Of a DNA stretch of 64,000 nt, positions 13,046-54,451 are shown piece after piece. The notes under the pieces were generated by a model, which saw only the letters and a program-made list of their open reading frames with translations, was not told the origin of the DNA and ran no database searches. Position numbers and translations under genes: made by a program. The stretch is from Lentisphaerae bacterium GWF2_38_69 (lineage in GTDB: Bacteria; Verrucomicrobiota; Lentisphaeria; Victivallales; GWF2-38-69), in NCBI GenBank assembly GCA_001803205.1, contig MHBE01000042.1, forward strand, positions 10,262 through 74,261, given 5' to 3'. Within the stretch, counting starts at the first letter, position 1, and each line of letters starts with the position of its first letter.

Positions 13046-13363
13046 CTATATTTCTTCAATATTAAGAACAGAGTACAAGCCGGCAAGATAGAAGATATTT
13101 TTTATTTTAGAACTTTTTTTTAAAACACATCTTAATTTTTTATTATTTACTGCCAGTTCTTTTGAGCACATTATCAAACTGCGTAAGCCGGCGCTGGAGA
13201 TGTAGTCAAGTTCAGTAAAATCCAAAATTATGTTTTTACTTGTGTCGCCGTACACCGATAAAAGCTCTTGATCGAAAGCAGCGGCATTGGAAAAATTTAT
13301 CTGTTCGGCAACCTTAACCCTTATCTCATTTCCAGTTGAAGTTATAGAGATATTAAGCAGCAT
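13046..13363 (-). CDS. STAS-domain anti-sigma-factor antagonist (SpoIIAA/RsbV-like)
   Basis: IILDFTELDYISSAGLRSLI, a typical STAS core with a conserved Ser. 105 aa. Confidence 0.8.
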   Translation of the reverse strand: MLLNISITSTGNEIRVKVAEQINFSNAAAFDQELLSVYGDTSKNIILDFTELDYISSAGLRSLIMCSKELAVNNKKLRCVLKKSSKIKNIFYLAGLYSVLNIEEI

Positions 13364-13480
13364 GAGAAGACCTATAGTTATTATTAATCTTTGTAAAATG
13401 ATTATAAAGCAAATCTATTTATGTTCAATAAACTTATTATAATCTTCACTTAATTTAGATTTCATGGCCAAGCTTTTATG

Positions 13481-14602: not shown

Positions 14603-16219
14603 TTACTTCTTTGTTTCGGTTTGGGATGTTTGGCTTTTTTTAAAGAGGCTAGTGAAGTTTGTCAGTCTATTCACATCGTTGAAAGTGACGAAAAGCATTA
14701 AGGCAATAAGCAGAACTACGAAAAGAGTATACAGTGGGTTTACGATCATTTGCGGAATAGGGCGCCTTATAATTATTTCTATGAAAGACATTACGATATG
14801 TCCACCGTCAAGAACAGGGAGAGGGAGCAAATTGAGAAGAGCTAAACTGAAAGTAATTATTGTTATAATATTCAGAGCATAAAGAATTGATCCATTGTAG
14901 ACTGCCTTGCCTATGACTGTAACTATTCCCAGAGGGCCGCTCATATGTTTAGCGCTTATGGAACTGTGTTTTGAGAAAATGCCGCGCAGTGATTGATAAC
15001 TCATTTCAATAACATTCAGGAACTGTTCCCATGGTGTAAGATGGTTATAGTAGGCGATACTGAGTCCTTGAATTTCACGAGGAGTATAGAGTTCGGGAGT
15101 AATATTTAGCTCTAAGGTCTTTCCATTTCTGACAATAGTAAAGGTCGCCTGTTTACCACCTTCTTTGGTTAGGATTTCCGGGATTCTTGTATCCTTAAAA
15201 ACCAGAGTGCTGTTGACTTTTACTATAATATCACCTGGAATTATGCCTGCTTTCTGGGCAGGTGAATCAGCTCTAACTTCAGCTACTCTTAGTTCATTAG
15301 CATCGGGTTCCAGCATAACTCCGATTATATATGTCTTATAGTTTTCAATATTGCTGGATGTTAAATCTTTTAAAGTTATTATTTTGCCTTTGCGGGCTAT
15401 AGTTGCCGTAAAATCCCCTGTTTTATTGATTTCCTTAAAGAAGGTTTCCGGGTCAGCAATGGAAGTTGAGCCAATTTTTATTATCCTATCTCCTGTTTCT
15501 AAACCGTAAGAAGCTGCAGGTGAGCCTTTTTTAATATTAATGATGACAGGAATTTCAGGTTTGAAAAATGGATATGGAAGTCCTTCTTTGGCCATTCCTG
15601 CGTTATCCTGGTTTACTTCGGGCAGATAAGTGATTGAGATAAGTTTGCCGTCACGCTCAACCCCAAGATGAATCTTTCCTATGGTAAAGAGCATTTCCTG
15701 AATGACTTTTTCCCAAGAAGCATGGAATTTCTCGCTATTTATTTCAACAATTTTATCGCCCTGTCTTAATCCTGCCTTGTATTCGGGGCCGTTTTCGCTG
15801 ATGGAAGCTACTGTGAATGAGTCCATTACCGGCGAAGCAGAAGGAATTCCGTAAATCCAGAGGAAGGTTGCAAGGAAAAACCCGAATAGAACATTAAAAA
15901 ATGGACCTGCGAAAGCTACTATAATTCTATCAACAGGCTTTACTTTCGGGAGTTCTTTTTTGTTTTCATCATATGCCGGGCCTGTCACATCAAGTTGAGG
16001 AAGATCCACATAACCGCCGAAAGGCAGACAGCCTATTCTGTATTCAATCCCATTTCTTTTATAAGCCCAAATTTTTTTAAAACCGATAGAGAAAGCCACA
16101 ATGTGGAGTTTCCTCCATTTCGCGGCTAGGAAATGACCTAATTCATGGATAAATATGCAGAACCCGAAAAAAAAGAGTACAAAAAATATTACATATATAT
16201 AAAATAAAATATTCAGCAT
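14603..16219 (-). CDS. rseP: RIP metalloprotease RseP (site-2 protease, M50) with PDZ domains
   Basis: HELGHFLAA zinc motif, PDZ-like GDKIVEING/GDRIIKIG/GDIIVKVN, and C-terminal LNLLPLPVLDGGH. The ATG at 16219 with a GAGGAA RBS is preferred over the TTG at 16234. Confidence 0.92.
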   Translation of the reverse strand: MLNILFYIYVIFFVLFFFGFCIFIHELGHFLAAKWRKLHIVAFSIGFKKIWAYKRNGIEYRIGCLPFGGYVDLPQLDVTGPAYDENKKELPKVKPVDRIIVAFAGPFFNVLFGFFLATFLWIYGIPSASPVMDSFTVASISENGPEYKAGLRQGDKIVEINSEKFHASWEKVIQEMLFTIGKIHLGVERDGKLISITYLPEVNQDNAGMAKEGLPYPFFKPEIPVIINIKKGSPAASYGLETGDRIIKIGSTSIADPETFFKEINKTGDFTATIARKGKIITLKDLTSSNIENYKTYIIGVMLEPDANELRVAEVRADSPAQKAGIIPGDIIVKVNSTLVFKDTRIPEILTKEGGKQATFTIVRNGKTLELNITPELYTPREIQGLSIAYYNHLTPWEQFLNVIEMSYQSLRGIFSKHSSISAKHMSGPLGIVTVIGKAVYNGSILYALNIITIITFSLALLNLLPLPVLDGGHIVMSFIEIIIRRPIPQMIVNPLYTLFVVLLIALMLFVTFNDVNRLTNFTSLFKKSQTSQTETKK

Positions 16220-39316: not shown

Positions 39317-42300
39317 ATGGCTAATTTTATTACAAATAGCGGGGTGAATGACCTTAAAAAGCGGATAGTTGAGCTTCTTAAGAGAAGCGATGAATTGAAG
39401 TTCTTAGTCGGATTCTTCTATTTTTCTGTAATAAGGGAGCTTTATGAGGGACTGAAATCAAATCCTGAAACCATAACAAAGATCCTTGTTGGTTTAAGCG
39501 TCGACCATTCCAACTTAGGGATGATTGAATTCTCGGAAAACGAGCAGCTATCAGATGAAGAAACGACATATAAGTTTTTTGAGTCAGTTAAAAAATCCTT
39601 GAACACAGAGAATTTTGATACGAAAGAGTTTTACGAACAGATACGGTTTTTCATCGAACTCATCCAGAAAGACAAGTTGATTATCCGTAAGACCTATAAA
39701 CCCAACCACTCCAAGTTATATCTTTTCAAACTTGAGCAAAGTCAGGTTGGCAAGAAACAATTGTTTATAACAGGCAGCAGCAACCTGACAAAGGCCGGGC
39801 TTTACACTCAGAATGAATTTAATGTGGAGATTGGCGACTATGGATTTGAAGATGCGGAAAAATATTTTGACGAACTTTGGGGAGATGCAGTAAAAATTAC
39901 GGAATTCAATGATACTAAAAAGAAGCTTGTTGAGGTGATTGAAAAGGAAACTCTTATTAAAGATATTTCGCCGTTTGAAGCTTTTTGCCTAGTCTTAAAA
40001 ACCTATTTGGACTCGTTTGAACAAAAAGATATAGGTGAATCTCTGAAAAAAACAATGGAAGAAAATGGCTACACTCCATATCTGTATCAGCTTGATGCGG
40101 TAAAACAGGCCTTAGCCATTATTGAAAACAATAACGGCGTAATAGTAGCTGATGTGGTAGGTTTGGGGAAAACTATTATTGCCTGCGCCATTGCCAAGCA
40201 GCTTAAAAAACGGGGCGTTATTATTTGCCCACCCGGTCTTGTCGGAGACAAAAATAAAAATTCAGGCTGGAAGAAATATACAGAGGAATTCGGGCTTTAT
40301 GAATGGGAGGTGCGTTCTCTTGGCGATCTGGAAAATACTTTGGAATTTGTTCAGAAATTCAGAGACATCGAGGCAGTGATTGTTGATGAGGCGCACCGTT
40401 TCAGGAACCAGGATACTCAGGATTATGAATTCCTTAAAAATATCTGCAGGGAAAAGCAGGTTATCTTGCTGACTGCCACTCCTTTTAACAATCGCCCAGG
40501 CGACATTCTTTCACTTCTCAAGCTATTTATTACGCCCAAAAAATCGTCAATCACTTTAGAAAGCAACCTTGTTGACCAGTTCCATGGATTTAAAGGCACT
40601 TTTGACCGGCTTGGTTACATAAAGAAATACTGGAAATCATCTGACAACTCAAAAAGAACCAAAGCCCAAACTTATTACAAGGCATTATTTGAAGAAGACA
40701 AAGTTGATTTAAAGAAAGTTTCCGGCAGGGCGCGCTATCTAGCCAGGCAAATCAGAGATGTTATTGAACCTGTGACTATCAGGCGAAACCGTTTGGATCT
40801 TCATAATAATCCTTTGTATAAAAATGAGGTAAAAGAGCTATCCAAGGTAGCTGACCCCATTGAATGGTTTTTTGAATTAAGCAAAAAACAATCTGAATTC
40901 TACTCTGAAATAATTGAGAGCTATTTTGGCGACCACGATGAGTGCGGACGCTTCAAGGGCGCTATATACCGCCCCTTTGAGTATGAAAAAGATATTAAAG
41001 GAAAGATAAACGAAGAAGATAACAGACAGCTCCAGCAGCAGCGAAACTTGTTTGATTTCATGCGTCGATTGCTGGTTAAGAGATTTGAAAGTTCTTTTGG
41101 CGCCTTTATGCAAAGCATTAGGAATTTCAAAAAGATTACTTTGAATGCGCTGACTTTCATAGAGAAGACCGGCGAATATATTCTGGATCGGGGACTGCTT
41201 GAGAAAATCTATGAACTCGGCGAGGATGAGATAGAAAAGTATCTTGCCGAATATGAGGATAAAATAAACAAAGGCGAGTATCCAAAGAATCATAAACGAT
41301 ACAAAATAAAGAACTTTGATTTGAGAGACGAGTTCCTTGCTCATATTCAATCCGACCTTGATTTATTTGATGAGATACTAGACAGGCTTTCTAATCTGGA
41401 TTTAGTAAAGAATGATCCTAAAACAGATTGCCTTATTGAAAATATAAAGAAGGAATTTGCAGGAAAACCGAACAAAGGCGAGCCAAGGCGAAAGATAATT
41501 ATTTTTACAGAATATGTTGATACTGCTAACTATATAGAAAAAGCTCTAAGGAATAATTTTGGCGACAGGATACTGGTGGTTGCCGGTGATTTGCCGCCAT
41601 CGAAGATTATTCAGATAAACAAAAACTTTGATGCTTCCTATTCTGAGCAGGAAAATTATTTCGACTTGCTGCTTGCTACAGATAAGATTTCCGAAGGGTT
41701 TAACCTTAATCGCGCCGGGATGGTTATAAATTACGATATCCCCTGGAATCCGGTGCGGGTTATCCAGAGGCTTGGCCGTATTAACCGTATCAGCAAAAAA
41801 GTTTTTGATGAACTTTATATCGTGAATTTCTTCCCTACCGAAAAGGGAGCGGAACTGGTGCAATCCCGCGAAATTGCAGCCAATAAAATGTTCCTTATCC
41901 ATAATGCACTGGGCGAAGATTCAAAGATATTCGATATAGACGAAGAACCGACTCCTGCAGGTTTATTCAGGCGCGTCCAACAGAATCCTGACGAACTGGA
42001 GGAAGAGAGTTTTTATACCAAAGCTTTCAAGGAATATTTGAGGATCAAAAAAGAACATCCTGCATTAATTGAAAACCTTAAAAACTATCCACCTCGAATA
42101 AAGGTGGCAAAGCTATACAGTGAAAATGAACTTCTGGTGTTCTTCAAAAAAGGCCGTTTATATGTAAGCGCTGCTAAGACTCAAACAGATAAAGTTGCAC
42201 CATACCAGACTGTGTTTGAAGATGTCTTTGAGAAAGTTGCCTGCAAGTCAGATGAAAAATCGCTTAATTGGAACACTGATAAATTCTGGCAGGCATATCA

Positions 42301-42637
42301 GACAATTCAAGATTTTAAAAATTATCGCCTACTCCCAACCAATGAACAAAGTTTAGAAATTAAAGCATTGAACAATCTTGCTTTTCTTATCAAAAACGCA
42401 AAAGAAGAACTGATGCCTCACAAGGATTTTCTGCGCACTCTTAAAGAAGATATATTAGGTTATGGTACCCTGGCTGATTATACACTGCGCAGGATTTCTA
42501 ATTTTAAAGAAGATTCCATCAAAGACCTTCAGGAACTAAAAGATGAATTGGGCGAAGATTATCTGATCAAAGAAAAGAATCACCTGAAAGACCAGAAAAA
42601 GGAAATAATTATAGCTATACAAAACCTTAAGGAATAA
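39317..42637 (+). CDS. PLD-family (single HKD motif) nuclease domain fused to an SNF2/DEAH-box helicase-translocase
   Basis: HKD motif NHSKLYLFK...FITGSSNLTKAG in the first 170 aa or so. Helicase motifs ADVVGLGKT (I), VIVDEAHRFRN (II), LLTATPFNNRPGD (III), and KIIIFTEY...LLATDKISEGFNL...INYDIPWNPVRVIQRLGRINRI (IV-VI). Uninterrupted 1106-aa frame. Confidence 0.85.
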   Translation: MANFITNSGVNDLKKRIVELLKRSDELKFLVGFFYFSVIRELYEGLKSNPETITKILVGLSVDHSNLGMIEFSENEQLSDEETTYKFFESVKKSLNTENFDTKEFYEQIRFFIELIQKDKLIIRKTYKPNHSKLYLFKLEQSQVGKKQLFITGSSNLTKAGLYTQNEFNVEIGDYGFEDAEKYFDELWGDAVKITEFNDTKKKLVEVIEKETLIKDISPFEAFCLVLKTYLDSFEQKDIGESLKKTMEENGYTPYLYQLDAVKQALAIIENNNGVIVADVVGLGKTIIACAIAKQLKKRGVIICPPGLVGDKNKNSGWKKYTEEFGLYEWEVRSLGDLENTLEFVQKFRDIEAVIVDEAHRFRNQDTQDYEFLKNICREKQVILLTATPFNNRPGDILSLLKLFITPKKSSITLESNLVDQFHGFKGTFDRLGYIKKYWKSSDNSKRTKAQTYYKALFEEDKVDLKKVSGRARYLARQIRDVIEPVTIRRNRLDLHNNPLYKNEVKELSKVADPIEWFFELSKKQSEFYSEIIESYFGDHDECGRFKGAIYRPFEYEKDIKGKINEEDNRQLQQQRNLFDFMRRLLVKRFESSFGAFMQSIRNFKKITLNALTFIEKTGEYILDRGLLEKIYELGEDEIEKYLAEYEDKINKGEYPKNHKRYKIKNFDLRDEFLAHIQSDLDLFDEILDRLSNLDLVKNDPKTDCLIENIKKEFAGKPNKGEPRRKIIIFTEYVDTANYIEKALRNNFGDRILVVAGDLPPSKIIQINKNFDASYSEQENYFDLLLATDKISEGFNLNRAGMVINYDIPWNPVRVIQRLGRINRISKKVFDELYIVNFFPTEKGAELVQSREIAANKMFLIHNALGEDSKIFDIDEEPTPAGLFRRVQQNPDELEEESFYTKAFKEYLRIKKEHPALIENLKNYPPRIKVAKLYSENELLVFFKKGRLYVSAAKTQTDKVAPYQTVFEDVFEKVACKSDEKSLNWNTDKFWQAYQTIQDFKNYRLLPTNEQSLEIKALNNLAFLIKNAKEELMPHKDFLRTLKEDILGYGTLADYTLRRISNFKEDSIKDLQELKDELGEDYLIKEKNHLKDQKKEIIIAIQNLKE

Positions 42638-42648
42638 TTTTGTGAGAT

Positions 42649-44118
42649 ATGAGCGAAGCAATTGAAAATATTCTGATTCTTCCTGAAGGTAAAACTCTGG
42701 AATTTAAAAGAGATATATCTTCCCCAAAGCCTATTTTGAAAACCTTAACTGCGTTTGCAAATACCGCAGGAGGAAAACTTATCATCGGCATAAGCGATTC
42801 AAAGACAGTTATCGGTGTCGAAAACCCTCTTGACGAAGAAGAAAAGCTCTGCAGTATAATTGCAGACTCTATTGCTCCAAAATTAGTTCCTAATGTTGAA
42901 TTAGTTACATATCAGGATAAGACTTTGCTGGTTGTTGAGGTATTTTTGAGTTCATTGAGACCTCATTATTTAAAAGCAGAAGGATCCGATAGAGGGGTTT
43001 ATGTCAGGCTTGGTTCTACTAACAGGTTGGCGGATAAGGAATTAATAGAAGAGCTTCGCCGTTCTGTAGATGGTGTTGCTTTTGATGAGATGCCTATGCC
43101 TGGTCTGAAAGTTGATAATCTGGATTTAAATGCCGCAACTGAATTATTCGGAAGGAATGATGAACTGACTGAAAAGGAACTGCTTACTCTAAAGATTCTG
43201 ACGAAATATCAAGGCAGGTTGATACCTACCAAAGGGGCTGTTCTGTTATTTGGAAAGGAAAGAATTTCACATTTTCCTGACGCATGGATACAATGCGGCC
43301 GTTTCATAGGAAAGGATAAATCAGAAATCTTCGACCATACCGATATCTATGATCCTCTTCCATTAGCAGTCGAAAGCATAATGCATTTCCTAAAGAAAAA
43401 TGCTATAAAAGGGGCAGATTTCTCAAAAACTCGCCGACAGGATGTCTGGAGTATCCCTCTGACAATCTTGAGAGAGGCTGTAATTAATGCCATTGTTCAT
43501 TCAGACTACTCCCAGAGAGGCGCTCCCATCAGGATTTCATTTTTCGACGACCGCATTGAGGTCGAAAATCCAGGAATCTTATTGCCTGGCATGACCATAG
43601 AAGATATGAAGCAAGGCATTTCCAGAATCCGTAATCCTGTTATAGCCCGTATCTTCCGCGAACTTAACTTCATTGAACAATGGGGAAGCGGAGTACGAAG
43701 AATATTTAAAGAAGCAAAAGAGAAAGGACTTCCCGAACCCCAGATAATAGAAATCGGCATGCGTTTGCGCTTTATAATTCCATTTGCTGAACTTCATACG
43801 ACACAAGTTGAAGCACAAGTTGAAGCACAAGTTGAAGCACAAGTTGACATAGATATACTTTCTGTATGCTCTTCTAATCCCATTTCCTCCGCTGAATTAG
43901 CAAAGGCTCTTGGTCATAAACAGTTAAGCGGCAACATTAGGAAAGCTATTCCCAGACTGAGAGAGACTGGCTTATTAGAATATACTATACCTGATAAACC
44001 CAGGAGCCGTAATCAGAAGTACAAACTGACTCAGAAAGGCCAGAACATGAAAATAGCAATAACTAACAGAGAGATAGCAAATGAGCGAGGCAAGACAGAT
44101 ATTAGAAACGATAATTGA
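42649..44118 (+). CDS. Schlafen/AlbA_2-type domain + HATPase_c_4-like domain + C-terminal winged-helix protein (often auto-annotated as RecG-like ATP-dependent DNA helicase or transcriptional regulator)
   Basis: LPEGKTLEFKRDISSPKPILKTLTAFANTAGGKLIIGI (AlbA_2), REAVINAIVHSDY...IRISFFDDRIEVENPG (HATPase-like), and C-terminal LRETGLLEYTIPDKPRSRNQKYKLTQKG (wHTH). Starts 11 nt after the upstream stop. Confidence 0.8.
   Translation: MSEAIENILILPEGKTLEFKRDISSPKPILKTLTAFANTAGGKLIIGISDSKTVIGVENPLDEEEKLCSIIADSIAPKLVPNVELVTYQDKTLLVVEVFLSSLRPHYLKAEGSDRGVYVRLGSTNRLADKELIEELRRSVDGVAFDEMPMPGLKVDNLDLNAATELFGRNDELTEKELLTLKILTKYQGRLIPTKGAVLLFGKERISHFPDAWIQCGRFIGKDKSEIFDHTDIYDPLPLAVESIMHFLKKNAIKGADFSKTRRQDVWSIPLTILREAVINAIVHSDYSQRGAPIRISFFDDRIEVENPGILLPGMTIEDMKQGISRIRNPVIARIFRELNFIEQWGSGVRRIFKEAKEKGLPEPQIIEIGMRLRFIIPFAELHTTQVEAQVEAQVEAQVDIDILSVCSSNPISSAELAKALGHKQLSGNIRKAIPRLRETGLLEYTIPDKPRSRNQKYKLTQKGQNMKIAITNREIANERGKTDIRNDN
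43804..43847 (+). repeat. 12-bp tandem repeat (caagttgaagca, about 3.7 copies) encoding (QVEA)n in an interdomain linker
   Basis: Read directly: caagttgaagca x3, then caagttga. Translated as QVEAQVEAQVEAQVD. Confidence 0.9.
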
Positions 44119-44276
44119 TGATTTTTCCATCGATAAGTTCAGTCGTTTTTTTCGTAAAAAGAGCCGTCAGTTTGCAGAGCGGACAGAAAATTATTCTCAC
44201 TACAACGATGAATGGTTTACAAGCTCTACGCCTGACTCCCGAAGAAATCCGCATCATCGAAGGCGTGGATAAATGA
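44081..44276 (+). pseudogene. Collapsed relic of a type IIG-like (Eco57I/TaqI-C-type) methyltransferase/restriction gene: N-terminal about 46 aa joined out of frame to the C-terminal about 22 aa
   Basis: The N-terminal piece MSEARQILETIIDDFSIDKFSRFFRKKSRQFAERTENYSHYNDEWF overlaps the upstream gene by 38 nt. A second frame (44208-44276) reads MNGLQALRLTPEEIRIIEGVDK*, the ...L(Y)GLTxEEIxIIEG tail typical of such enzymes. The family assignment is from memory only. Confidence 0.5.
44244..44263 (+). repeat. Left copy of a perfect 20-bp direct repeat gaaatccgcatcatcgaagg
   Basis: Identical 20-mer found at 46298-46317. The flanking bases differ. Confidence 0.9.
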
Positions 44277-44377: not shown

Positions 44378-45457
44378 ATGATATCAAAACTGTGTATCAG
44401 CCGATTTAAGGGCTTTGAACATCTAGAATTGTCAAAACTTACAAGAGTTACGCTACTAGGCGGCAAAAATAATGTCGGGAAGACTACTATTCTGGAAGCC
44501 CTTTTCATGTTTTTTGATAGGTTTAACCCTCAGATGATACTGCGTCAGTTTGCACTTAGGGGCGTAAATGTCATTCCGATGGAACCTGAGTCTATGTGGG
44601 CTCCAGTTTTTAATAACTACGAACTTACGAAGTCAATTATAATTTCCGGCTTAGTGGACAGGAAAGAAGAAAAAATGACAGTTAAATTCAATCCAAACTA
44701 TATTGCATCCATTCCTGCAGATATTCCCAAGTCGGGAGAAAGATCATTACAGATTAGAACCGACCAGAAGCCTGTCCCATCCTATGCTCTGGATATAACT
44801 TATGACAATAAGGAAATGAAAAACCAGACAGCACACCTTCTGATGAGCCAAAGCGGTATTGGAATACAAATTGACAATGCAAAAATGAAAAAAAACTATC
44901 AGATAACTTTTATAGGAGCAAGAGGCTCGGGGAATCCATCTGAAGACGCTGTTCGTTTTGGACAATTAGATATATTAGGCATGCAGAATAAGATACTGGA
45001 TTTGCTAAAAATTGTAGAACCTAACCTAAAAAGCCTCTCTTCAATATCAATGGGTGATACTTCTATGGTTTACGGAGATATCGGGCTTTCCAGGAAGATA
45101 CCAATATCATATATGGGTGATGGCGTGTCTCGCCTTTTAACGATTATTTTAGCTATTGCAACTGCAAAGAATGGCATTGTTGCTATTGATGAGTGCGAGA
45201 ACGGTATTCACTACTCGGTAATGCCAAAAGTATGGAAAGGAATTGTTCATGCCGCAAATGAGTTTAATTGTCAGGTCATAGCTACCACGCATAGCGATGA
45301 GTGTTTAAGAGCTGCTTATGAAGGGCTTTCAGGAGAATTTGAAAAAGATCTTAGTTTTACTCGAATTGACCGTCTTCCAAATAGACAAACATTAGCAAAA
45401 ACTTTTGACTATGAGATGCTCAGAGTTGCTTTTGAAACGAATATGGAGGTGCGTTGA
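44378..45457 (+). CDS. ABC/SMC-type (AAA_15/AAA_21-like) ATPase
   Basis: Walker A LLGGKNNVGKTTILEAL, Walker B IVAIDECENGIH, and ATTHS H-loop. Strong RBS (CGGAGGA). Confidence 0.8.
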   Translation: MISKLCISRFKGFEHLELSKLTRVTLLGGKNNVGKTTILEALFMFFDRFNPQMILRQFALRGVNVIPMEPESMWAPVFNNYELTKSIIISGLVDRKEEKMTVKFNPNYIASIPADIPKSGERSLQIRTDQKPVPSYALDITYDNKEMKNQTAHLLMSQSGIGIQIDNAKMKKNYQITFIGARGSGNPSEDAVRFGQLDILGMQNKILDLLKIVEPNLKSLSSISMGDTSMVYGDIGLSRKIPISYMGDGVSRLLTIILAIATAKNGIVAIDECENGIHYSVMPKVWKGIVHAANEFNCQVIATTHSDECLRAAYEGLSGEFEKDLSFTRIDRLPNRQTLAKTFDYEMLRVAFETNMEVR

Positions 45458-45458
45458 A

Positions 45459-46106
45459 ATGCCTCTTAATAAAGATAAAAAGACACGGATTGAGCGAAGC
45501 AAGCTTATTTTAGCCGAGGGCTTGGATGCATACTTTTTTTGCATATGGGCATGTAATACTTACAGACCGGAAACTATCCAAATTCTTGATTTTGGTGGTA
45601 TAGGTGACTTAAGCAAGTTCATTGCAGGAATAAAACTTCTGCCAAATTATGAACAGGTAGAAACAATCGTAATACTTCGGGATGCCGAAAAGGATGCTAA
45701 GTCAGCTATTGACAGCATAAAAAGCTCATTAAAAAAAGAAGGGTTTTCCATACCTAAAAAGCCTTGCGAATTTACTTCTTCCTCTCCGCGTATTGCCTAT
45801 ATGGTGTTACCAGGGTTTGGTAAAGATGTTGATGGGATGAATTATCTTCCTGCTGGCACTCTTGAAGATCTTTGTATCGAGATTGTTAGTAACGATCCGA
45901 TCATAGAATGCGTAGATCAATATCTGCAATGCGTGCAATCTAAAAACACTAAGCTGACACATCCTCACAAAGCAAAGCTCCATGCTTATCTTGCAGGTAA
46001 AAATGAGTATGTTGGATTGAAAATTGGAGAAGCTTCCAAAGCAGGAGTATGGAACTGGGAGCATGAAAGGCTTAAGCCCTTTAAAGAAGTAATAATGGCG
46101 ATGTAG
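45459..46106 (+). CDS. TOPRIM-like partner protein (DUF3226/DUF4276/RloB-like class; exact family unresolved)
   Basis: LILAEGLDAYFF (conserved Glu), IVILRDAEKD (acidic cluster) and GTLEDLCIE. The ATG at 45459 follows GGAGGTG and lies 1 nt after the ATPase stop. Confidence 0.6.
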   Translation: MPLNKDKKTRIERSKLILAEGLDAYFFCIWACNTYRPETIQILDFGGIGDLSKFIAGIKLLPNYEQVETIVILRDAEKDAKSAIDSIKSSLKKEGFSIPKKPCEFTSSSPRIAYMVLPGFGKDVDGMNYLPAGTLEDLCIEIVSNDPIIECVDQYLQCVQSKNTKLTHPHKAKLHAYLAGKNEYVGLKIGEASKAGVWNWEHERLKPFKEVIMAM

Positions 46107-46115: not shown

Positions 46116-46181
46116 CTATCAACAATCTAGCGTGAAATAAATGGAGTTTTGTTGATAGTTGTCGATAGAAAATGTTGATAG
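46116..46181. promoter_or_regulatory. Cluster of four copies of a 9-bp motif TGT(T/C)GATAG (one inverted, three direct): candidate operator upstream of the AbiE module
   Basis: ctatcaaca at 46116-46124 (inverted). tgttgatag at 46150-46158, tgtcgatag at 46160-46168, tgttgatag at 46173-46181. Confidence 0.45.
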
Positions 46182-46330
46182 AACTAAAATTATCAGTAAT
46201 GGAAATGACAAAAAAGGCGTTTGATATTGTCAAACAAAAGGGATCAACTGCTCCAAATCCCGTTTCAATCACCATGGAAAGACAGAAATCTGTTCCTGAA
46301 ATCCGCATCATCGAAGGTACTTCAAAATGA
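46172..46330 (+). CDS. Small ORF (52 aa) translationally coupled (ATGA overlap) to the AbiEi-like gene; may instead be a leftover gene tail
   Basis: MLIELKLSVMEMTKKAFDIVKQKGSTAPNPVSITMERQKSVPEIRIIEGTSK*. Below the track's size cut-off. Contains the right copy of the 20-bp repeat. No clear RBS. Confidence 0.3.
   Translation: MLIELKLSVMEMTKKAFDIVKQKGSTAPNPVSITMERQKSVPEIRIIEGTSK
46298..46317 (+). repeat. Right copy of the perfect 20-bp direct repeat gaaatccgcatcatcgaagg
   Basis: Identical to 44244-44263. In both places it encodes EIRIIEG near a stop codon. Confidence 0.9.
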
Positions 46331-47052
46331 AGATAACAACATTAGAACATCTTAATAGTTTTATAAAAAAAGCGGGGCAATATTTCCGATATGCCGATGT
46401 GAAAGCATTTCTTATTTCACAAAATACCAAAGTGTCTGATTCTACACTTCAAACTTATCTGAGTAGGGAAATAGCTAAAAAAAACATTTTCAGCGCAGGG
46501 AAAGGATGGTATTCAAAGCAGGAAAAAGAATTTAGACTGAATGTCGAACCCATTCAGAAGATAATTGGACTGATAAAACAAAAGTTTCCTTTGCTGGAAA
46601 TTTCCTGTTGGAGCACTGAACAAATAAACTCATTCACTCACCATATGCTGGGAAAGCATATAACTTTTATCTATGTAGATATTGATGCGGTCAATTCAGT
46701 GCATGAATTTCTACTTGATAATGGATATAATTCTTATGATAATCCTACGAAAAAGGAAACACAAAAGCATTTCAGGGCAACAAACAACACTGTAGTTTTA
46801 AGAGCTTCTATAGCAAAGCAGCCGGAAGATCTAAGCGGAGCTTCTTCTGTTGAAAAATTACTCGTCGATCTAATTTTTGAAAACAGGAAATTACATATTA
46901 TGCCAGAAGATGAGATAGAGAACATTTTTGAAAGTATTTTAAAATATGAAAGAATTAATGTCTCTACTCTTTTTTCGTATGCCAAGAGGCGTGAAATGGA
47001 TATCCAAGAAATCAAGAAATTCCGGATTTTTAATTTATCCGGAAATCCTTGA
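46327..47052 (+). CDS. AbiEi-like antitoxin/transcriptional regulator (type IV TA / abortive infection)
   Basis: N-terminal wHTH-like FRYADVKAFL...LQTYLSREIAKKNIFSAGKGWYS (compare the AbiEi ...rG.Y motif). Sits directly upstream of an AbiEii-family gene. Confidence 0.6.
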   Translation: MKITTLEHLNSFIKKAGQYFRYADVKAFLISQNTKVSDSTLQTYLSREIAKKNIFSAGKGWYSKQEKEFRLNVEPIQKIIGLIKQKFPLLEISCWSTEQINSFTHHMLGKHITFIYVDIDAVNSVHEFLLDNGYNSYDNPTKKETQKHFRATNNTVVLRASIAKQPEDLSGASSVEKLLVDLIFENRKLHIMPEDEIENIFESILKYERINVSTLFSYAKRREMDIQEIKKFRIFNLSGNP

Positions 47053-47075
47053 TATAATCACCTATAAAGCTAGAT

Positions 47076-48155
47076 ATGATAAAGCGTAAATATTTTCAAG
47101 AAGAAACTATAAGAGCTAAACGAAATGAGTTAAAAGTCGCAGATCCCGGCTTATTTGAGAAAGCTATTCATGCCTTTGAACTATTAGGCTGCCTTGCGGA
47201 ATCAGGGTTGGATTTTATATTCAAGGGCGGCACTTCTCTTATGCTTCATATTCCCGAACCTCAGAGATTATCTATAGATATAGACATATTGTCAGGAGAA
47301 AAACCTGATAACCTCGACTCAAAGCTAAAAAGCATTAGCATGATGTATCCATTTTTAAGATGTTATGAAGACGAGAGAGGGCACAGAGGTTTGCCAAATC
47401 GCAGGCATTTTAAATTTTTCTATAACTCTCAGATATCTAAAAGGGAAGATAGTGTTCTTCTTGATATAGTTGAAGAAAATAAATGTCTTTTGCCTATACA
47501 GGAAAAGGTCATTAAATCCACTTTTTTTGAGACAGATAGAAATGTAAAAGTAAAAGTTCCAATACCCGAAGGGCTTCTTGGCGACAAGTTGTCGGCTTTT
47601 GCTCCCAATACTCTTGGAGTGCCTTTCTTAACAAAAAGCGGGCATCTCCATTCTCTTCAGGTAATCAAGCAGATGTTTGATATTGGACAGCTTTTTGATA
47701 TAGTCGCTAACTACAAAGAAGTATTTGCCGCCTATCTTGCTTCTTATAAACAAGAAAATGAATATAAAAAAGGTATTTATACACTAGAACAAGCTCTTGA
47801 TGATTCAGTAGAAACAGCTCTCGAGGTTTGCCGGATGGGGTTACGAGGACATAAGGCTTCAGATATTTCTGGTTATTTAGATGATGGCATTAGAAAACTT
47901 CAAAATCATTTAATATCAAATCCATTTAGACCAAATATTGAAGCGAAAATATCAGCATCAAAAGCATTTGCTCTATTTAAAATGATAAGAGGAAACTCTT
48001 TTGATTTAATGACAGAATACGGGTTATATATTCAGTCGGAAAAACAGATAGAATTGATAAGAAGTAATTCGATAGACTCAACTATCGACAGGCTGAAGAA
48101 AACTAATCCCGAAGCCTACTACTACTTGCTTCTTGGTATTTTATCTTCACAATAA
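47076..48155 (+). CDS. Nucleotidyltransferase AbiEii/AbiGii toxin family protein
   Basis: FIFKGGTSLMLHIPEPQRLSIDIDIL matches the DUF1814/AbiEii signature (KGGTAL...R.S.DiD). Confidence 0.8.
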   Translation: MIKRKYFQEETIRAKRNELKVADPGLFEKAIHAFELLGCLAESGLDFIFKGGTSLMLHIPEPQRLSIDIDILSGEKPDNLDSKLKSISMMYPFLRCYEDERGHRGLPNRRHFKFFYNSQISKREDSVLLDIVEENKCLLPIQEKVIKSTFFETDRNVKVKVPIPEGLLGDKLSAFAPNTLGVPFLTKSGHLHSLQVIKQMFDIGQLFDIVANYKEVFAAYLASYKQENEYKKGIYTLEQALDDSVETALEVCRMGLRGHKASDISGYLDDGIRKLQNHLISNPFRPNIEAKISASKAFALFKMIRGNSFDLMTEYGLYIQSEKQIELIRSNSIDSTIDRLKKTNPEAYYYLLLGILSSQ

Positions 48156-48182: not shown

Positions 48183-48410
48183 ATGGGCATTGAATCTTTT
48201 TTGAAATGGGCAGCTAACTACGGTATCCAAGAAGTTGACGAAGCAATAAAAAACTGCAAAGTTGCGACATTATCATTTATGTGCAACTACTTAGAAGAAA
48301 AAACAAGAGTTCACAAGCTAAAAAGGGAAATTTAGTTTATGCTTATTTGTTCGCTTTATGGATTAACGAAAGAAGAAACCGAGTTTATTAAGAATTATGA
48401 GATAGAATAA
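48183..48410 (+). pseudogene. C-terminal fragment of a methyltransferase/restriction-type gene with an in-frame TAG
   Basis: ...CNYLEEKTRVHKLKREI*FMLICSLYGLTKEETEFIKNYEIE*. The LYGLTxEE tail motif is in the same frame across the TAG at 48333-48335. Confidence 0.45.
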
Positions 48411-48564
48411 AGGCTAAGCGAGACTGAAGAGGATGAATAGACCAGAAGGAAAGTTTACCGCGCACTCTGCCGTTTGGTATGGAACCGCATCTCTAAAGCA
48501 AACAGCTTATGAAGGCTAGCCGGACAATTAATAAATTCCTTTTATATCTGGAAGGATGAGAGTT

Positions 48565-48718: not shown

Positions 48719-51700
48719 ATGAATTTATTGAGTTTAGGAAAAAATTATTTTAGAAATCTGATCAGGTTATTTTTTTTACTTCTAATTATTTATAATGCCA
48801 ATCTAATGGCTGCGGATGCCAAAGAATCGGGGGATGTGTGGTTGTCTGCCTATGAGATATACGAAAAAGCGGAAGGTTTTTATGAGAAAGAAGACTATTC
48901 ATCGGCGATGGTGTATTACGCTAGAGCTCTAACTAAATTTGAAGAACTCAAGGATAAATATCCTGACTGGAATTCAGAATTGGTTGAATACCGCATTACA
49001 TATTGTGAAGAAAGAGACACTCTGATAAGAAATAAACTTTCTAATAAGAAGAAAAGACTTCCCGAAGACGAGTTAGTCAAAGAAAATATTGACATGCATT
49101 CAAAGCTTGTCGAATATCAGGATGAGCTTTATTCCGAACAGAAAAAGTTAAAGGATGCTCTTAGAAAAATAGAAACAGGCAATAATGAAATAAGCAAAAA
49201 CTCTGCCGCCGCTGAAAAGCTAAGAGAAGTTCTCAAGGAAAAGATTGAACTCGAAAAAAAATATAATTTTCTGAATGAGCAGTACTCTTCCGAAGAGAAA
49301 AGCAAAGAAGTTCAGCAAATGCGTTCCAATCTTGAAAATCAGCGCTTTGAAATAGAAAACCTCAGACAAGAGAAAAGCAAAATGTCAGCTGACCTTTCTG
49401 CTCTCAATAAGAAATATCTGGAACTTTCAACACAAAAAGCTGATATCGATTATATGTACAAAAGCGCTTTAGGAAAAGCTAAAATGTCTGAAGAAGAAAA
49501 GCAGAAAGTAGCCGCAAAGCTTGATGCAGTTTCAGGAGAGCTTGAAAATGTCAGGACTGAAAAAGAAAGAATAGGTGAGCGAGCCAATAAACTTCAGGAA
49601 TTGCTTGAGAACATTAAGGAAACAGCACCGAAAGATACCGATTCACCGGACGAAATAGCCCTTAGAAATGAAAACGAGGCGTTGAAAAGACAGTTAAATG
49701 GATTTCAATCCGAAATTGATAAACTCTCTCAGATTCGGGATTCTTATAGTTCGCAGCTTAAAACAATTCAGGACTCATACGAAAGCTCTACGAAGAACAT
49801 CTCTGCCTTGAACAGCAGGTACCAGGCGCTTAATAGTGAATCTGAATTACTGAGAAATCAAATAAAAGGAAAAACCGAGGCTGAACTTTCTGCAACCCGG
49901 AAAATAAACGAACTTGCTTCCAGCCTGGCTGACAGCAAAGAGTCCTATAATCTTCTAAGCGATAAGTATAAAGCGCTTGAGAAAAATCAGGCCGTTCTAC
50001 CTGAACTTCAGCAGAAAAACCAGTCATTGGAGACACAAAAAAAAGATCTGGAAAATTTGCTCGAAAACTATCAGAAAAACCTGGAAAGTATCAAACAGGA
50101 AAGAGACTCACTGGAAATGTCCAGAAAAGCACTCGAAGAGGAAAAGAGCAACCTAATCAAAGATCATCTAGCATCCAAGAATGCAGATGATGAAAAATAC
50201 AAAGCCAGACTAACTGAGCTGGATGAAGCAACTGGCAAACTTAAAACCCTTGAAACGGCCAAACTTGATCAGCAGAAAAAGATTGAAGATTTGATAAACG
50301 AATCAGCAAAGAAAGAACAATCATATAATAAACTTTCAGAAGAGAACCTGAAACTAACAAACAAGGCTATGAGCGCGGATAAAATGTTGCGTCAGCTTCA
50401 GGAAGAGTACAATAAGAATTCCAGCGCTTACTCGGATTTAAGTCAGAAATTAAATCAGAATAATGTTAAGCTCCAGGAATATGAATCAGCAAGGGGAAAT
50501 CTGGAAAATCTACTCAAGAACACGACTGAAGCAAAAGAAAATGCAGAAAAGCTCAGCAAAGAACAGATTAAGAAATATGATGAGCTAAACAGCAAATTTA
50601 CGGAGAAAGAGAAGTCCATTGAGGACTTTCAGAATAGGTTGTCGCAAAAGGATGAAGAACTAAGTCAGTCACTAAAGAAAGCTGAAGAACTTAAGAACTT
50701 TTCAGCCAAGGATAAAGAAAAAATCGATTCCCTGCTTGATTCCATAGGTAATTTATCAAAGGACATTGAATCAAAGAATATCGACAAAAAAAACCTCGAA
50801 GAGAAACTTGCAACAGCAGCGGACAAGGCATCAGCAATGGAACTGCATAATAAAGCTCTTGAAGACAAATTCAGTGATTTGCTTAAAGGTTCAAAGAAAC
50901 TGAATGAAGAACGCGCTTCCGTAGAGAGAGAACGCAATGAAGTTATCAGGAAACTCGCAGAGGCAAATGAAAACTTGAAGAAATCGCGTTCGGACCTCGA
51001 TGAAAGTTCTGAAAAAAGGAAAAAGCATCTTGACGAGATAGCTTCTCTTAAGAGTTCACTTGAGGCCATTCAGGGAAAACTGGACGCTCTTTCCAATGAG
51101 AATGATCAATTGAGACAAAATCTTGACGACTCAGCTAAAAAAGCGGAGGCTTTTGAAGATGAAAAAACTCAATATTTAAATCAAATTAAAGAGCTTGTGG
51201 GTAATCTTGAAAATGCTGAAAAGAGAAATGAATCTTCAGAATCAATGCGTTCACTTACTGAAGAAAGATTTATATCTATTAATAACAGAGTAAACGACCT
51301 GGAAAAAATCCGCCAGGATCAGAGCGCTCTGATACAGAGCCTTCAGGGACAGTTAGAACAGGTCACTAAGGAATCTCAAACTGAAAATACCGCTGACGAC
51401 CTCTCTGAACTTACATCAGAACTTACCAGAGCAAATGAGAAAATCAGCAGTTACGAAACTCAAATCGCAGAAAGCTCTGAAAATATCCTTAAATATCAGT
51501 CAGAATACGCATCAATGAAGTTTGACCTGGATAAGGAAAGAAATGCCAGAGCTCAACTTCAAAATAGATTCGATGAAGCAAGTAGACAGCTTGACGCTAT
51601 GAAGAACCAACTAGACGCGCAAAAAGTTAATACAGACAAAATGATCTCAAACATGAATTCTATGAGTGAAAAATTAAGGCAGTCTGAAGAGAGTGCCGAA

Positions 51701-54451
51701 AAATTACAGAACGATTCACTTAAGGCTGCAGAGGATTTTGAACATGCCAAAAAGAATTATGAAGAGAAAGTTTCTTCTCTGAATTCCCAGATTGAAGCTC
51801 TTACAAATGAAAAATCAGAACTCATTTCAAGTACCGCGGAGAATGCAAAGCTGAACTCTGAACTCAATTCTGCAAACCTTAAAGTTGACGCTCTGGAAGG
51901 ACAGCAAAAAGAAAATATATCTAAAATAGAAAATCTTCTTGCTCAGCTAGATTCCGAAAGACAGCTTTCTTCAGGCAGCACTACAGCAAACAGTGAAATA
52001 GCTCAAGAGATAGACAGTTTTAAATCCCAATTGTTATCTTATGAGTCTGAAAAAAAATCAATTAAAAGCCAGATAGATAACCTAGCTGCCGCAGTTGATG
52101 AAAGAGATAAGAAAATAGAAGAACTTGAAACAAATCTTAAAGAATCCAATGATAAACTCACCTCAGCTTTAGATGAAAAAGAAAAACTCAAAGAGGCTTT
52201 CAATGGGACTTCTGAAGAATTATCTCAGGCTAAAAATGCTGTGACAGGCCTAAAAACAGAGCTTGCCCAAAATTCCTCTAACTTATCCGAACTCCAGAAG
52301 AACCTCGATAATTCAAAGAAAGCATATTCTGACAGCACGCAGAAAGTTAAAGAACTTTCACAGATTGTCCAGAAAGCAGAATCTGAAATAGAGGATTATA
52401 AGAAACAGAAATCTGATTATGACACGAAAGTCCAATCGCTTAACTCTGAACTATTATCTGCTGTTTCCAAAACCCAGGAGCTAGAGAAAAATGAAGATGT
52501 AATTCAGATGGAAAATGATACTCTGAGAACCCTTCTTAATACGCTTGAAGCAGACAATAACTCCAAGGACGGCAAAATCCGTGAATTAAGTGGAATAGTT
52601 GACTCTTCGCAAACGATAACTGATTCCCTGTCAGATGTAAAATTAAATCTAGAAGCACTCTCAAAAACTTCAGAAAAGGAACTTAAGGAGCTAAGAAGCA
52701 AGTATGAGAAACAGTTAGAGATTAATAATGCCCTTGTTAAAGAACTGGAATCTTATAGAAATAAAGGACAGCAACTGGATAAAGCCAATTCTGATATGAA
52801 TTCAGACCTTGCAAAAACAAAAAGAGATCTTAGCGAAACTCTATCTAAAAATGAACTGCTCAAGGAAAATCTTGATTCGATATCAGCCGAACTTGAAAAA
52901 GCTAAATCAGATTCTGCAAATTATCAGAGAGAGTATGACAAGCTTTCAGCTATATTCAATAGTATCCAGAAAGAACTTGAAGCTGCTAAAAATGAAAAAT
53001 CAGCTTTACAAGAAGAGTTTACAAAAGCAAAAAATGATTTTGCCGCACTTAGAAATCTGGAAACGGATAAGAAACTTACAAAGATTCAGCTTGAATACGA
53101 CCAGCTCTTTAAAAGAAATTCTGATACTGAAAATGAAGTGACTGAAACCAAAAATAAACTAAATTCTGTTTCCCTGAAACTTAAGGAATCTGAACTGCGC
53201 AAAAAAAACCTTGAAGAAATCAATGAATCTCTGCAGAAAAAACTTATTGATGCTAATTCCAAAAATCAGGAACTTTCCAGAGTATACTCAGAAAAAGAGA
53301 CTATCATTATCGAACTTAGTGACGAGCTTAAGACTCTAAAAGAGGATCTTAAGGATAAAACTTCTAAAAACCTCCTTCTTTCTGAAAATGTTGAAGCCCA
53401 AAAAGAAACTGTTTCTATCATTTCAAACGAAAATGCTGATCTCAAACAGCAAGTAACGGATGCGGAACTTAAAAATTCAGAGCTTCTCAAATCTTTTTAC
53501 GAGAAAGAAACCGCATCATTGGAACTCAAAGATGAAATCAGAAGTTTGAATGATGAACTTAGAACTGAAATATCAAAGAGCGCTGTTTTGGCTAATGAAC
53601 TAAATGATCAAAAAGAGCAAGTTTCGAAAACCCAGACTGAAAAAAGGCTTCTTCTTTCCAAAATAGCTTCTTATGAGACTCTCGTATCGGTTATTAAAAA
53701 AGAGAAAAATGACATTGAAGGCAAATATAAATTACTTCTGCAGAAAATTCAGGATTTTACCAGAAAGCTTAAAGAACCTGCAATAACAAATAAGGATGAC
53801 ACTGAGAAAATCGCTCAGTTGAGATCTGAAAATGTTTCTTTAAATCGTGAAATCCTAGCTCTTAATAGGAAAATACAGACACTCAAGTATAAAAAGATTA
53901 ATCCACAGGCAATACTGTCAAAAGAAGATAAAGAAAGACTCATGAAGCTTGTCAAGTCTGCCAGAATGTCAATAGCCCAAAATGACTTCAGCTCAGGGTA
54001 TAAGTATCTGGGTATGGCTGCAGATATTGCGCACGATAATTACCAGATACAGAAAAACGCAGGTCTCCTGGCCATGACCAACAGCGATTATTCTGCCGCC
54101 TTAAAATATCTTAGCAACGCTAAAAGCATTTCCATTAATGACGATGAAAATAATTCCATTCTACTTGCTTTGTGCCATATCTATATTGGAGACTATAGTA
54201 AGGCTTTGATAGAGTTTAATAATGCAGCTGAACTCGAAAAAAACACAAAACTTGGCAAAGCGCTGGATGCTTACTGTCTGGATCTGATTTCAGGAATGAA
54301 GAGCACGAAGAATTCAGAAAAATCGATGAAAGAGTTTATCCATTCCCCTGAAATGGCTTCGAAACTTTCTTCTATCTTGCTTCTCTGTAATCCTCCAAAA
54401 ATTCAGGAAGCTGAAAGATGGAACTCCGTGAGCCCTAAAGAAAATAATTGA
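48719..54451 (+). CDS. Giant (1910 aa) exported coiled-coil protein with TPR-like caps at both ends
   Basis: Signal-peptide-like LFFLLLIIYNANLMA/AD. N-terminal TPR-like YEKAEGFYEKEDYSSAMVYYARAL. About 1600 aa of uninterrupted E/K/L/Q/N/S-rich heptad-like sequence. C-terminal TPR-like AQNDFSSGYKYLGMAADI...GDYSKALIEFNNAAEL. Confidence 0.85.
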   Translation: MNLLSLGKNYFRNLIRLFFLLLIIYNANLMAADAKESGDVWLSAYEIYEKAEGFYEKEDYSSAMVYYARALTKFEELKDKYPDWNSELVEYRITYCEERDTLIRNKLSNKKKRLPEDELVKENIDMHSKLVEYQDELYSEQKKLKDALRKIETGNNEISKNSAAAEKLREVLKEKIELEKKYNFLNEQYSSEEKSKEVQQMRSNLENQRFEIENLRQEKSKMSADLSALNKKYLELSTQKADIDYMYKSALGKAKMSEEEKQKVAAKLDAVSGELENVRTEKERIGERANKLQELLENIKETAPKDTDSPDEIALRNENEALKRQLNGFQSEIDKLSQIRDSYSSQLKTIQDSYESSTKNISALNSRYQALNSESELLRNQIKGKTEAELSATRKINELASSLADSKESYNLLSDKYKALEKNQAVLPELQQKNQSLETQKKDLENLLENYQKNLESIKQERDSLEMSRKALEEEKSNLIKDHLASKNADDEKYKARLTELDEATGKLKTLETAKLDQQKKIEDLINESAKKEQSYNKLSEENLKLTNKAMSADKMLRQLQEEYNKNSSAYSDLSQKLNQNNVKLQEYESARGNLENLLKNTTEAKENAEKLSKEQIKKYDELNSKFTEKEKSIEDFQNRLSQKDEELSQSLKKAEELKNFSAKDKEKIDSLLDSIGNLSKDIESKNIDKKNLEEKLATAADKASAMELHNKALEDKFSDLLKGSKKLNEERASVERERNEVIRKLAEANENLKKSRSDLDESSEKRKKHLDEIASLKSSLEAIQGKLDALSNENDQLRQNLDDSAKKAEAFEDEKTQYLNQIKELVGNLENAEKRNESSESMRSLTEERFISINNRVNDLEKIRQDQSALIQSLQGQLEQVTKESQTENTADDLSELTSELTRANEKISSYETQIAESSENILKYQSEYASMKFDLDKERNARAQLQNRFDEASRQLDAMKNQLDAQKVNTDKMISNMNSMSEKLRQSEESAEKLQNDSLKAAEDFEHAKKNYEEKVSSLNSQIEALTNEKSELISSTAENAKLNSELNSANLKVDALEGQQKENISKIENLLAQLDSERQLSSGSTTANSEIAQEIDSFKSQLLSYESEKKSIKSQIDNLAAAVDERDKKIEELETNLKESNDKLTSALDEKEKLKEAFNGTSEELSQAKNAVTGLKTELAQNSSNLSELQKNLDNSKKAYSDSTQKVKELSQIVQKAESEIEDYKKQKSDYDTKVQSLNSELLSAVSKTQELEKNEDVIQMENDTLRTLLNTLEADNNSKDGKIRELSGIVDSSQTITDSLSDVKLNLEALSKTSEKELKELRSKYEKQLEINNALVKELESYRNKGQQLDKANSDMNSDLAKTKRDLSETLSKNELLKENLDSISAELEKAKSDSANYQREYDKLSAIFNSIQKELEAAKNEKSALQEEFTKAKNDFAALRNLETDKKLTKIQLEYDQLFKRNSDTENEVTETKNKLNSVSLKLKESELRKKNLEEINESLQKKLIDANSKNQELSRVYSEKETIIIELSDELKTLKEDLKDKTSKNLLLSENVEAQKETVSIISNENADLKQQVTDAELKNSELLKSFYEKETASLELKDEIRSLNDELRTEISKSAVLANELNDQKEQVSKTQTEKRLLLSKIASYETLVSVIKKEKNDIEGKYKLLLQKIQDFTRKLKEPAITNKDDTEKIAQLRSENVSLNREILALNRKIQTLKYKKINPQAILSKEDKERLMKLVKSARMSIAQNDFSSGYKYLGMAADIAHDNYQIQKNAGLLAMTNSDYSAALKYLSNAKSISINDDENNSILLALCHIYIGDYSKALIEFNNAAELEKNTKLGKALDAYCLDLISGMKSTKNSEKSMKEFIHSPEMASKLSSILLLCNPPKIQEAERWNSVSPKENN

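Follow-up and report, generated by a model that had tools for sequence, protein, structure and literature searches.

Introduction

The locus described here raises the question of whether two long, intact genes that lie side by side constitute a defence module, or whether they are what remains after loss and insertion in a different kind of system. They belong to a stretch of 64,000 nucleotides (nt) from Lentisphaerae bacterium GWF2_38_69 (contig MHBE01000042.1), hereafter the window, in which two uninterrupted open reading frames (ORFs) of the forward strand, gene 1 at 39317-42637 and gene 2 at 42649-44118, are separated by 11 nt. Gene 1 encodes a fusion of a phospholipase D (PLD)-type nuclease domain and a SNF2-type motor, and gene 2 a prokaryotic Schlafen (pSlfn) protein. 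A reading made from the sequence alone, without database searches, had proposed the pair as a candidate uncharacterised module resembling restriction-modification (RM) systems, descended from a three-gene operon. After comparison with related loci, we consider it probable that the locus represents, in decayed form, a widespread two-gene, ATP-dependent RM-like module into which a Schlafen gene was inserted as cargo.

A PLD-SNF2 fusion paired with a DNA methylase

According to the ORF list and the domain search, gene 1 encodes a protein of 1106 amino acids (aa), hereafter the ‘R’ subunit, composed of three parts: an N-terminal PLD nuclease domain with a single HKD motif (~aa 1-200; H131-S-K133 and GSSNLT at 153-158), a SNF2-type motor of helicase superfamily 2 (SF2; ~aa 250-870; GLGKT of Walker A at 282-286, DEAH at 357-360 and QRLGRINR of motif VI) and a conserved C-terminal domain (~aa 900-1106) without family match. 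Among the Pfam families, PLDc_2 matched aa 117-188 with a score exceeding the gathering score (1.7e-6), and SNF2-rel_dom (7e-13), Helicase_C (6e-18), ResIII and DEAD were detected above thresholds. These matches and the motifs bear out the initial description of gene 1 as a single-HKD PLD domain joined to a complete SNF2/DEAH core. In an alignment of 120 homologues, gene 1 retains 411 of the 412 near-invariant columns. The sole deviating residue is V38 (codon at 39428-39430), which is glycine in 117 of 119 homologues; this change, G38V, might be inactivating and might perhaps have permitted the loss of the methylase described below. The gene 1 model matched SNF2, RapA and Hef translocases in a fold search, and a sequence search against PDB yielded nothing beyond generic SNF2/DEAD cores.

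The contexts of gene 1 homologues were surveyed in ENA, JGI and NCBI contigs and in 28 GTDB genome loci, with ORFs labelled by BLAST, and the counts given below refer to the 29 non-redundant loci whose downstream sequence was long enough; in all, ~6,900 homologous proteins were found at E<=1e-10. In every one of these loci (29/29), a gene for a methylase of 1110-1260 aa, hereafter ‘M’, lies downstream of PLD-SNF2 in the same orientation; M carries Eco57I, MmeI_Mtase, N6_Mtase and often TaqI_C domains and is of the Eco57I/Cj0031-like N6-adenine type. In 16 loci the end of R and the start of M share 4 nt, in three the genes are separated by a small gap, and in the remaining ten more than 100 nt of insert or gap intervene; the 4-nt overlap is found in all three of the closest relatives of gene 1 (79-83% identity). 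The loci span at least 12 phyla, and R identity across phyla is 60-84%; the taxa include Lentisphaerota, Patescibacteria (the candidate phyla radiation, CPR), Nitrospirota, Desulfobacterota, Elusimicrobiota, Planctomycetota, Spirochaetota, Ignavibacteria and Gammaproteobacteria. Among 90 ORFs flanking the related loci, no Pfam family occurred in more than four, and none of DUF499, DUF3780, DUF1998 and PglZ was among the 25 most frequent families listed. As the R-M linkage is found in all 29 loci and no flanking family recurs in more than four ORFs, the conserved unit consists of two genes. An RM-like origin of gene 1 is thus supported by its constant pairing with a methylase, and the idea of an ancestral three-gene operon is not, since R and M alone are conserved and no third gene is. 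Likewise, the Eco57I-like methylase that had been expected beside gene 1 homologues appeared in every locus, and the AlbA_2 (Schlafen-type) partner expected with it was absent from about 25 of the 29.

The constant presence of M also bears on the possibility that gene 1 is an autonomous, modification-dependent (type IV) PLD-helicase active against modified phage DNA. SauUSI combines a PLD domain and an SF2 helicase in one polypeptide, a layout that gene 1 recalls, and gene 1 has stayed intact after the methylase was lost. Nevertheless, the methylase is paired with R in all 29 loci, no DUF3427, SRA or other modified-base reader domain was found in gene 1 by the Pfam scan, and R is itself decaying in a related locus that has lost its methylase (L036, see below). 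We therefore regard a type IV activity as highly improbable.

The methylases are unevenly conserved along their length. Over the alignment of L001-L032, the first 190 aa of M show a mean pairwise identity of 56% (minimum 46%), against 34% for the body of the protein, and at least three unrelated C-terminal types were distinguished. Type I and type III systems show this pattern as well, with R conserved and M, which bears the specificity, variable. We infer that the conserved N-terminal domain of M docks to R; it is a candidate for either an R-docking domain or a degenerate nuclease. The partner methylases match REBASE-derived REase_MTase_IIG models (1e-222, 740 bits), and the candidate D...ExK positions in their N-terminal domain lack conservation within the family. 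A PDB search with a single methylase query gave no match. A profile of 16 partner methylases matched CamA, BseCI, BrxX and MmeI over the methylase and target-recognition part only; for the N-terminal ~350 aa, the same profile found no PDB match except weak ones to MglA (E ~7e-4), which we judged to be due to chance.

In some CPR and other genomes (L004-L006, 4436-9997; L120, 4142-7996), the module comes directly after a small gene of the MerR/HTH_17 (excisionase-like) kind, with a large serine recombinase nearby. The two-gene module may travel on a small integrative element.

Loss of the methylase and probable insertion of the Schlafen gene

What is left of M in the window is a stub on the forward strand at 44081-44276, in which the head (codons 1-44; 44081-44212) is joined to the last ~22 codons (44211-44276) with a 1-nt frameshift. 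The third ORF noticed at first sight lies within it (44081-44272, forward strand, 63 aa) and overlaps gene 2 by 38 nt. Its interpretation as the head and tail of a methylase was confirmed by alignment to the partner methylases: residues 1-44 align to the conserved methylase N-terminus, with identities of up to 70% over 46 aa, as to those of L012 and L032, and 44211-44276, when read with a 1-nt deletion, gives MVYKLY[G]LTPEEIRIIEGVDK followed by a stop codon at 44274-44276, which is the C-terminus of a partner methylase. In L119, which like L120 has an intact pair with an R 79-82% identical to gene 1, the segments corresponding to head and tail lie at 11318-11461 and 15028-15066, so ~3.6 kb is absent from the window, and the module is not intact. 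The window is 100% identical to a metagenome-assembled genome of Lentisphaerae, and an independent metagenome contig (L035) has the identical layout including the 63-aa ORF, and the arrangement is thus not an assembly artefact. Relocation of the methylase was also considered and rejected, as no other methylase of this kind exists in the 64 kb window.

The boundaries of gene 2 appear to record how it arrived. Its start (ATGAGCGAAGCAA, MSEA; 42649-42661) nearly duplicates that of the stub (ATGAGCGAGGCAA, MSEA; 44081-44093), other Schlafen homologues start differently, and its final 13 codons coincide, in a different frame, with the methylase head. The duplicated MSEA start and the end of gene 2 within the methylase head fit an insertion of the Schlafen gene exactly at the start codon of M. 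This insertion, with duplication of MSEA, was probably the first event, and the deletion of ~3.6 kb of M, leaving the 63-codon stub, followed later.

A second locus, L036 (4616-10768), repeats the order of R, Schlafen gene and stub, with a gene 2 counterpart that is 81% identical. Its stub is independent and in frame, comprising 30 head and 31 tail codons with a different tail type, and its PLD-SNF2 gene is split into two ORFs. Judging from these sequences, decay follows methylase loss, R being still whole in the window and split in L036. L036 also carries a second copy of the tail after a gene for a 331-aa membrane-like protein. We considered whether the joined head and tail could be a programmed on/off switch and rejected this idea, because the junctions and tail types differ between the window and L036 and all the scars are direct, not inverted.

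The Schlafen gene as a rider of methylase operons

Gene 2 encodes a 489-aa protein of the HisKinase-HTH class of pSlfn. The Slfn/AlbA_2 domain, a predicted RNase, occupies aa 13-128 (SLFN_AlbA_2, 1e-24), followed by HATPase_c_4 at aa 291-376 (4e-29) and a winged helix-turn-helix (wHTH) at aa 403-461 (Fic-like_C, 4e-8). The putative active site reads E13-GKTL-E18-F-K20, so that E13-x4-E18-x-K20 is intact, and E13, E18 and K20 are invariant or nearly so among 34 homologues. The AlphaFold model (predicted local distance difference test score, pLDDT, 78) matched the uncharacterised structures 3lmm and 2kyy, human SLFN12/14 and the SAMD9 tRNase, and further matches were histidine-kinase CA domains (HK853) and PadR wHTH proteins. 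The Pfam and fold searches thus agree with the first description of gene 2 as AlbA_2/Schlafen, GHKL-like ATPase and winged helix, and by its sequence the protein falls squarely within the pSlfn HisKinase-HTH class. Between HATPase_c_4 and wHTH, the linker contains a 12-nt in-frame tandem repeat, (EAQV)n, at 43802-43847 on the forward strand, and the L035 allele is one repeat unit (4 aa) shorter (485 against 489 aa), so that the length differs between two assemblies of one species.

The tRNase activity of prokaryotic Schlafens, which have an Ex4(E/D)xK site, is switched on by phage, and the HisKinase-HTH class makes up 19.2% of 5,930 prokaryotic Schlafen proteins (Taboada et al., PMC13056530). 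In the part of that work available to us, the Schlafens dissected experimentally are Ig-like and DUF262 fusions, and tRNA cleavage and defence are shown for classes other than HisKinase-HTH (PMC13056530). In at least 1017 taxa, Schlafen-HisKinase-wHTH genes are reported in close linkage with loci of BREX and BREX-related systems, and Schlafens of this kind have been proposed as backup effectors (PMC12839542).

Is the Schlafen gene, then, a component of the module? In related loci, the R-M junction is occupied by YhcG/DUF1016 (L014, L018, L021), Bro-N (L020), DUF3800 (L013), PDDEXK_3 (L022), RhuM (L027) or Abi_2 (L033), and by a different AlbA_2-HATPase protein in L012; in L030, a Bro-N gene stands after R. 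The junction is a cargo slot that holds one variable gene in about a third of the loci, with at least eight alternative types. Genes of this set are familiar hitchhikers of type I RM operons. The neighbourhoods of gene 2 relatives tell the same story from the other side. We surveyed 80 metagenome loci with relatives at 57-74% identity from other lineages, and none of the 80 has a PLD-SNF2 neighbour. In 16 of 45 cases the upstream neighbour on the same strand is an N6-methylase (N6_Mtase, Eco57I or HsdM_N), the genes often overlapping by 4 nt, and the downstream neighbour is PglZ in six of 43; L037 carries a relative flanked by PglX and PglZ within a type 1 BREX operon. Gene 2 relatives are riders in type I RM and BREX-type methylase operons, and the Schlafen/AlbA_2 gene is not the committed partner of gene 1 that it had been taken for.

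A dedicated three-component system of PLD-SNF2, Schlafen/AlbA_2-HATPase and methylase, the first two genes of which would still be a functional module, would account for the 11-nt spacing, the gap without a terminator-like site, and the intactness of both genes. It would also agree with the repeated order of R, Schlafen gene and stub in L036, and with Schlafen-HATPase genes adjoining PLD-SNF2/methylase pairs in L012 and L122. The latter (5207-13658 of the Parabacteroides distasonis plasmid NZ_OY725763.1) consists of a distant PLD-SNF2 gene (33% identity) and an Eco57I methylase gene, with an HTH regulator and an AlbA_2-HATPase_c_4 gene in front of them. Nevertheless, about 25 of the 29 R-M loci do without a Schlafen gene, the closest three relatives join R and M by the 4-nt overlap, seven other unrelated families use the same slot, and the Schlafen position itself varies, being upstream of R in L122 and at the R-M junction elsewhere. 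Together with the lack of PLD-SNF2 neighbours in the 80 loci, these observations make a dedicated three-component system very unlikely.

Another reading is a role generic to methylase-based systems, in which the Schlafen tRNase would be held latent on the RM complex and fire upon phage anti-restriction, as a guard similar to PrrC. Many gene 2 relatives are translationally coupled to an upstream N6-methylase or lie within BREX, the proposal of Schlafens as backup effectors (PMC12839542) goes in the same direction, and PrrC and RloC are precedents for RM-embedded tRNases (PMC1484252, PMC2610378). However, the methylase is gone from the window and the Schlafen motif is intact and evidently not lethal, which implies that the protein can be silent without this RM complex. 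A guard function is possible but unlikely.

Proposed mode of action and fate of the decayed copy

Direct observation covers the domain content and gene order, the R-M linkage, the variable cargo at the junction, the deletion in M and the preserved motifs; how an intact module would work can be proposed from what is known of type I, III and ISP enzymes and of CglI/NgoAVII. M, encoded directly downstream of R, translationally coupled to it and equipped with its own target-recognition region, would recognise and methylate a short asymmetric site in the host DNA. On unmethylated DNA, M would recruit or license R, which would then translocate along the DNA, consuming ATP. Paired HKD motifs form one PLD active site in Nuc and BfiI. 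With one HKD motif per R, two molecules would need to meet to form such a site before cutting, and cleavage may thus take place when they collide or dimerise, as it does in enzymes of type III, type ISP or the CglI-like kind.

In the genome analysed here, restriction-modification is probably dead, because ~3.6 kb of the methylase gene has been deleted and, in such systems, the lost methylase supplies both target recognition and self-protection. R is probably inert without its targeting or licensing partner, which would explain how an intact nuclease gene is tolerated in the absence of the methylase. The order of decay gives indirect evidence that R depends on M: a lineage with an intact R and no M argues that R is inactive without M, unless it is G38V that inactivates it. 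The Schlafen protein probably acts alone as an abortive-infection tRNase, and its trigger may be sensed through the HisKinase-like and wHTH part. It is attractive to speculate that, after the loss of the methylase, the PLD-SNF2 and Schlafen proteins became a methylation-independent pair, the Schlafen, for example, sensing or guarding the translocase, or its wHTH licensing the translocase-nuclease in place of M, and, more broadly, that the R-M junction is a docking slot for PrrC-like guards; we consider this quite unlikely.

Several points weigh against our interpretation of the locus as a decayed RM-like module with inserted cargo. Methylation, the recognition site, cleavage and the dependence of R on M are all transferred from analogous enzymes. 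The gene 1 model has pLDDT values below 50 in the HKD and motif V-VI regions. Signs of decay in gene 1 are limited to G38V, and its good preservation could mean either that the deletion is recent or that R is functional without M. Schlafen-HATPase genes have come to lie beside PLD-SNF2/methylase pairs three independent times, namely in the lineage of the window and L036, in L012 and in L122, which could exceed chance hitchhiking. Finally, the N-terminal domain of M could be a degenerate PD-(D/E)xK nuclease, and the division of labour between R and M would then be uncertain.

The surrounding island

Upstream of the module lie housekeeping genes for pyrroline-5-carboxylate reductase and an aldehyde dehydrogenase. 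Downstream and outside the module, an AbiL/PDC-M38-type cassette on the forward strand (44378-46106) comprises an AAA_15/AAA_21 ATPase gene (44378-45457) and a gene for a DUF3226 protein extending to 46106; it was recognised by matches to PDC-M38A (8e-56), AbiLi (2.5e-50) and DUF3226 (8e-22). This cassette is enclosed by the two copies, at 44244-44263 and 46298-46317, of a perfect direct repeat of 20 nt. The second copy of the repeat falls in a methylase-tail scar on the forward strand at 46295-46330, which reads PEIRIIEGTSK before its stop codon and forms the end of a 52-aa ORF (46172-46330) that overlaps the start of AbiEi by ATGA. The AbiE system is a separate neighbour on the same strand (46327-48155), with AbiEi at 46327-47052 (DUF6577; AbiEi match 1.7e-38) and AbiEii at 47076-48155 (2.8e-89); both of these small defence cassettes are complete. 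It is followed, again on the forward strand, by two more methylase-tail scars, each ending in a stop codon: ICSLYGLTKEETEFIKNYEIE at 48336-48410, and one ending in RKVYRALCRLVWNRISKANSL at 48411-48512, which is of another tail type, found also in L008, L010 and L012.

Beyond these scars, a 1910-aa coiled-coil protein with weak SMC/JetC/LmuB-like matches is encoded on the forward strand (48719-54451), convergent with a gene on the reverse strand (54538-57261) for a second SNF2 helicase of 907 aa, which has a ZorD/DpdE-like motor core and no nuclease-domain match. A scan for promoters gave no excess over the shuffled expectation and terminators were in marginal excess; no tRNA genes were found as markers of the island borders. 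The tail scars between cassettes and the 20-nt repeat suggest that the island grew by recombination, through repeated exchange of cassettes at methylase 3' ends.

Comparison with known systems

No named system of PADLOC or NCBIfam claims gene 1, for which only partial matches were obtained, including one to a candidate model, ‘C3a139 HKD+Snf2’. The DrmD and DrmMI models were the best partial matches among the named systems, and gene 1 scored 153 bits with the DrmD equivalog NF038317 (cut-off 610) and 83 bits with NF038318 (cut-off 950). Membership of a named system was rejected for gene 1, since DrmD, BrxH, DpdE, ZorD and HmaA match the helicase lobes only, and partially. We found no DrmA/DrmB-like genes among the ORFs scanned at ~36.6-62.4 kb, and, with the low DrmD score, the initial view that the locus is not DISARM still stands. 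A literature search for PLD-SNF2 and for SNF2 with PLD and type IIG defence yielded no match. Nevertheless, to call the genes uncharacterised is only partly justified, as their parts have been described: HKD-SNF2/SF2 restriction subunits (PMC12839542, PMC10853773, PMC2292703) and Schlafen-HisKinase-wHTH riders (PMC12839542, PMC13056530). In addition, Cj0031-like type IIG RM genes with an adjacent PLD+SNF coding sequence have been tabulated in the context of phase-variable methylases (Milman et al.; PMC9881135, Table 3); this appears to be the same gene pair, mentioned there in passing and left unnamed. The R-M family is most aptly regarded as a two-gene variant of ATP-dependent RM that has no name yet; its parts are already in the comparative-genomics literature.

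As in type III (Res/Mod) and type ISP (LlaGI-like) enzymes, a fusion of nuclease and SF2 motor is combined with a methylase that has its own target-recognition region; R is conserved, M is variable, and R is presumably harmless without M. Unlike those enzymes, R carries an N-terminal single-HKD PLD domain, not PD-(D/E)xK or Mrr, and its motor is of the SNF2 family, and M is a protein of 1100-1260 aa from the Eco57I/Cj0031 lineage with an extra conserved N-terminal domain. Gene 2, with its Slfn fold, ExxxxExK site, HisKinase-like domain and wHTH, resembles the HisKinase-HTH class of pSlfn and, by its place within a methylase-based operon, PrrC and RloC.

The BREX-related type 2 (Hma-like) systems also join an HKD endoDNase, at the N-terminus, to a Swi2/Snf2 helicase, and they have an N6-methylase and Schlafen-HisKinase-wHTH riders (PMC12839542). 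The HKD-helicase fusion does not by itself mark a member of that family, and the DUF499 ATPase and DUF3780 that define them are absent from the neighbours in the window, and HmaA of PADLOC matches only the region of the helicase C-lobe in gene 1. Class 1 DISARM (DrmD, DrmMI, DrmA/B, DrmC), ARMADA and BREX type 3 share with the module an SNF2 helicase and an Eco57I/PglX-like adenine methylase, and DISARM a PLD nuclease as well; the locus differs from them in that PLD and SNF2 are fused and DrmA/DrmB (DUF1998/YprA), BrxC and PglZ are missing. A core of SNF2 helicase and PglX-like methylase has been recognised as common to ARMADA, class 1 DISARM and BREX type 3 (10.1101/2025.09.15.676423).

The copy in the window mainly records a decay in which the methylase was lost first and the nuclease-motor gene is still intact. 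The module to which it belonged, still without a name, is very common and moves horizontally between phyla, CPR bacteria among them, and it could serve as a simple model for the licensing of SNF2 motors and HKD nucleases by a methylase. Its R-M junction resembles the accessory-gene slots of type I RM systems and could be mined for new abortive-infection genes. Seen beside the known systems, the pair of PLD-SNF2 and Eco57I-like methylase looks like the minimal, self-contained form of a core elaborated upon by DISARM, BREX type 3, ARMADA and the BREX-related/Hma systems.

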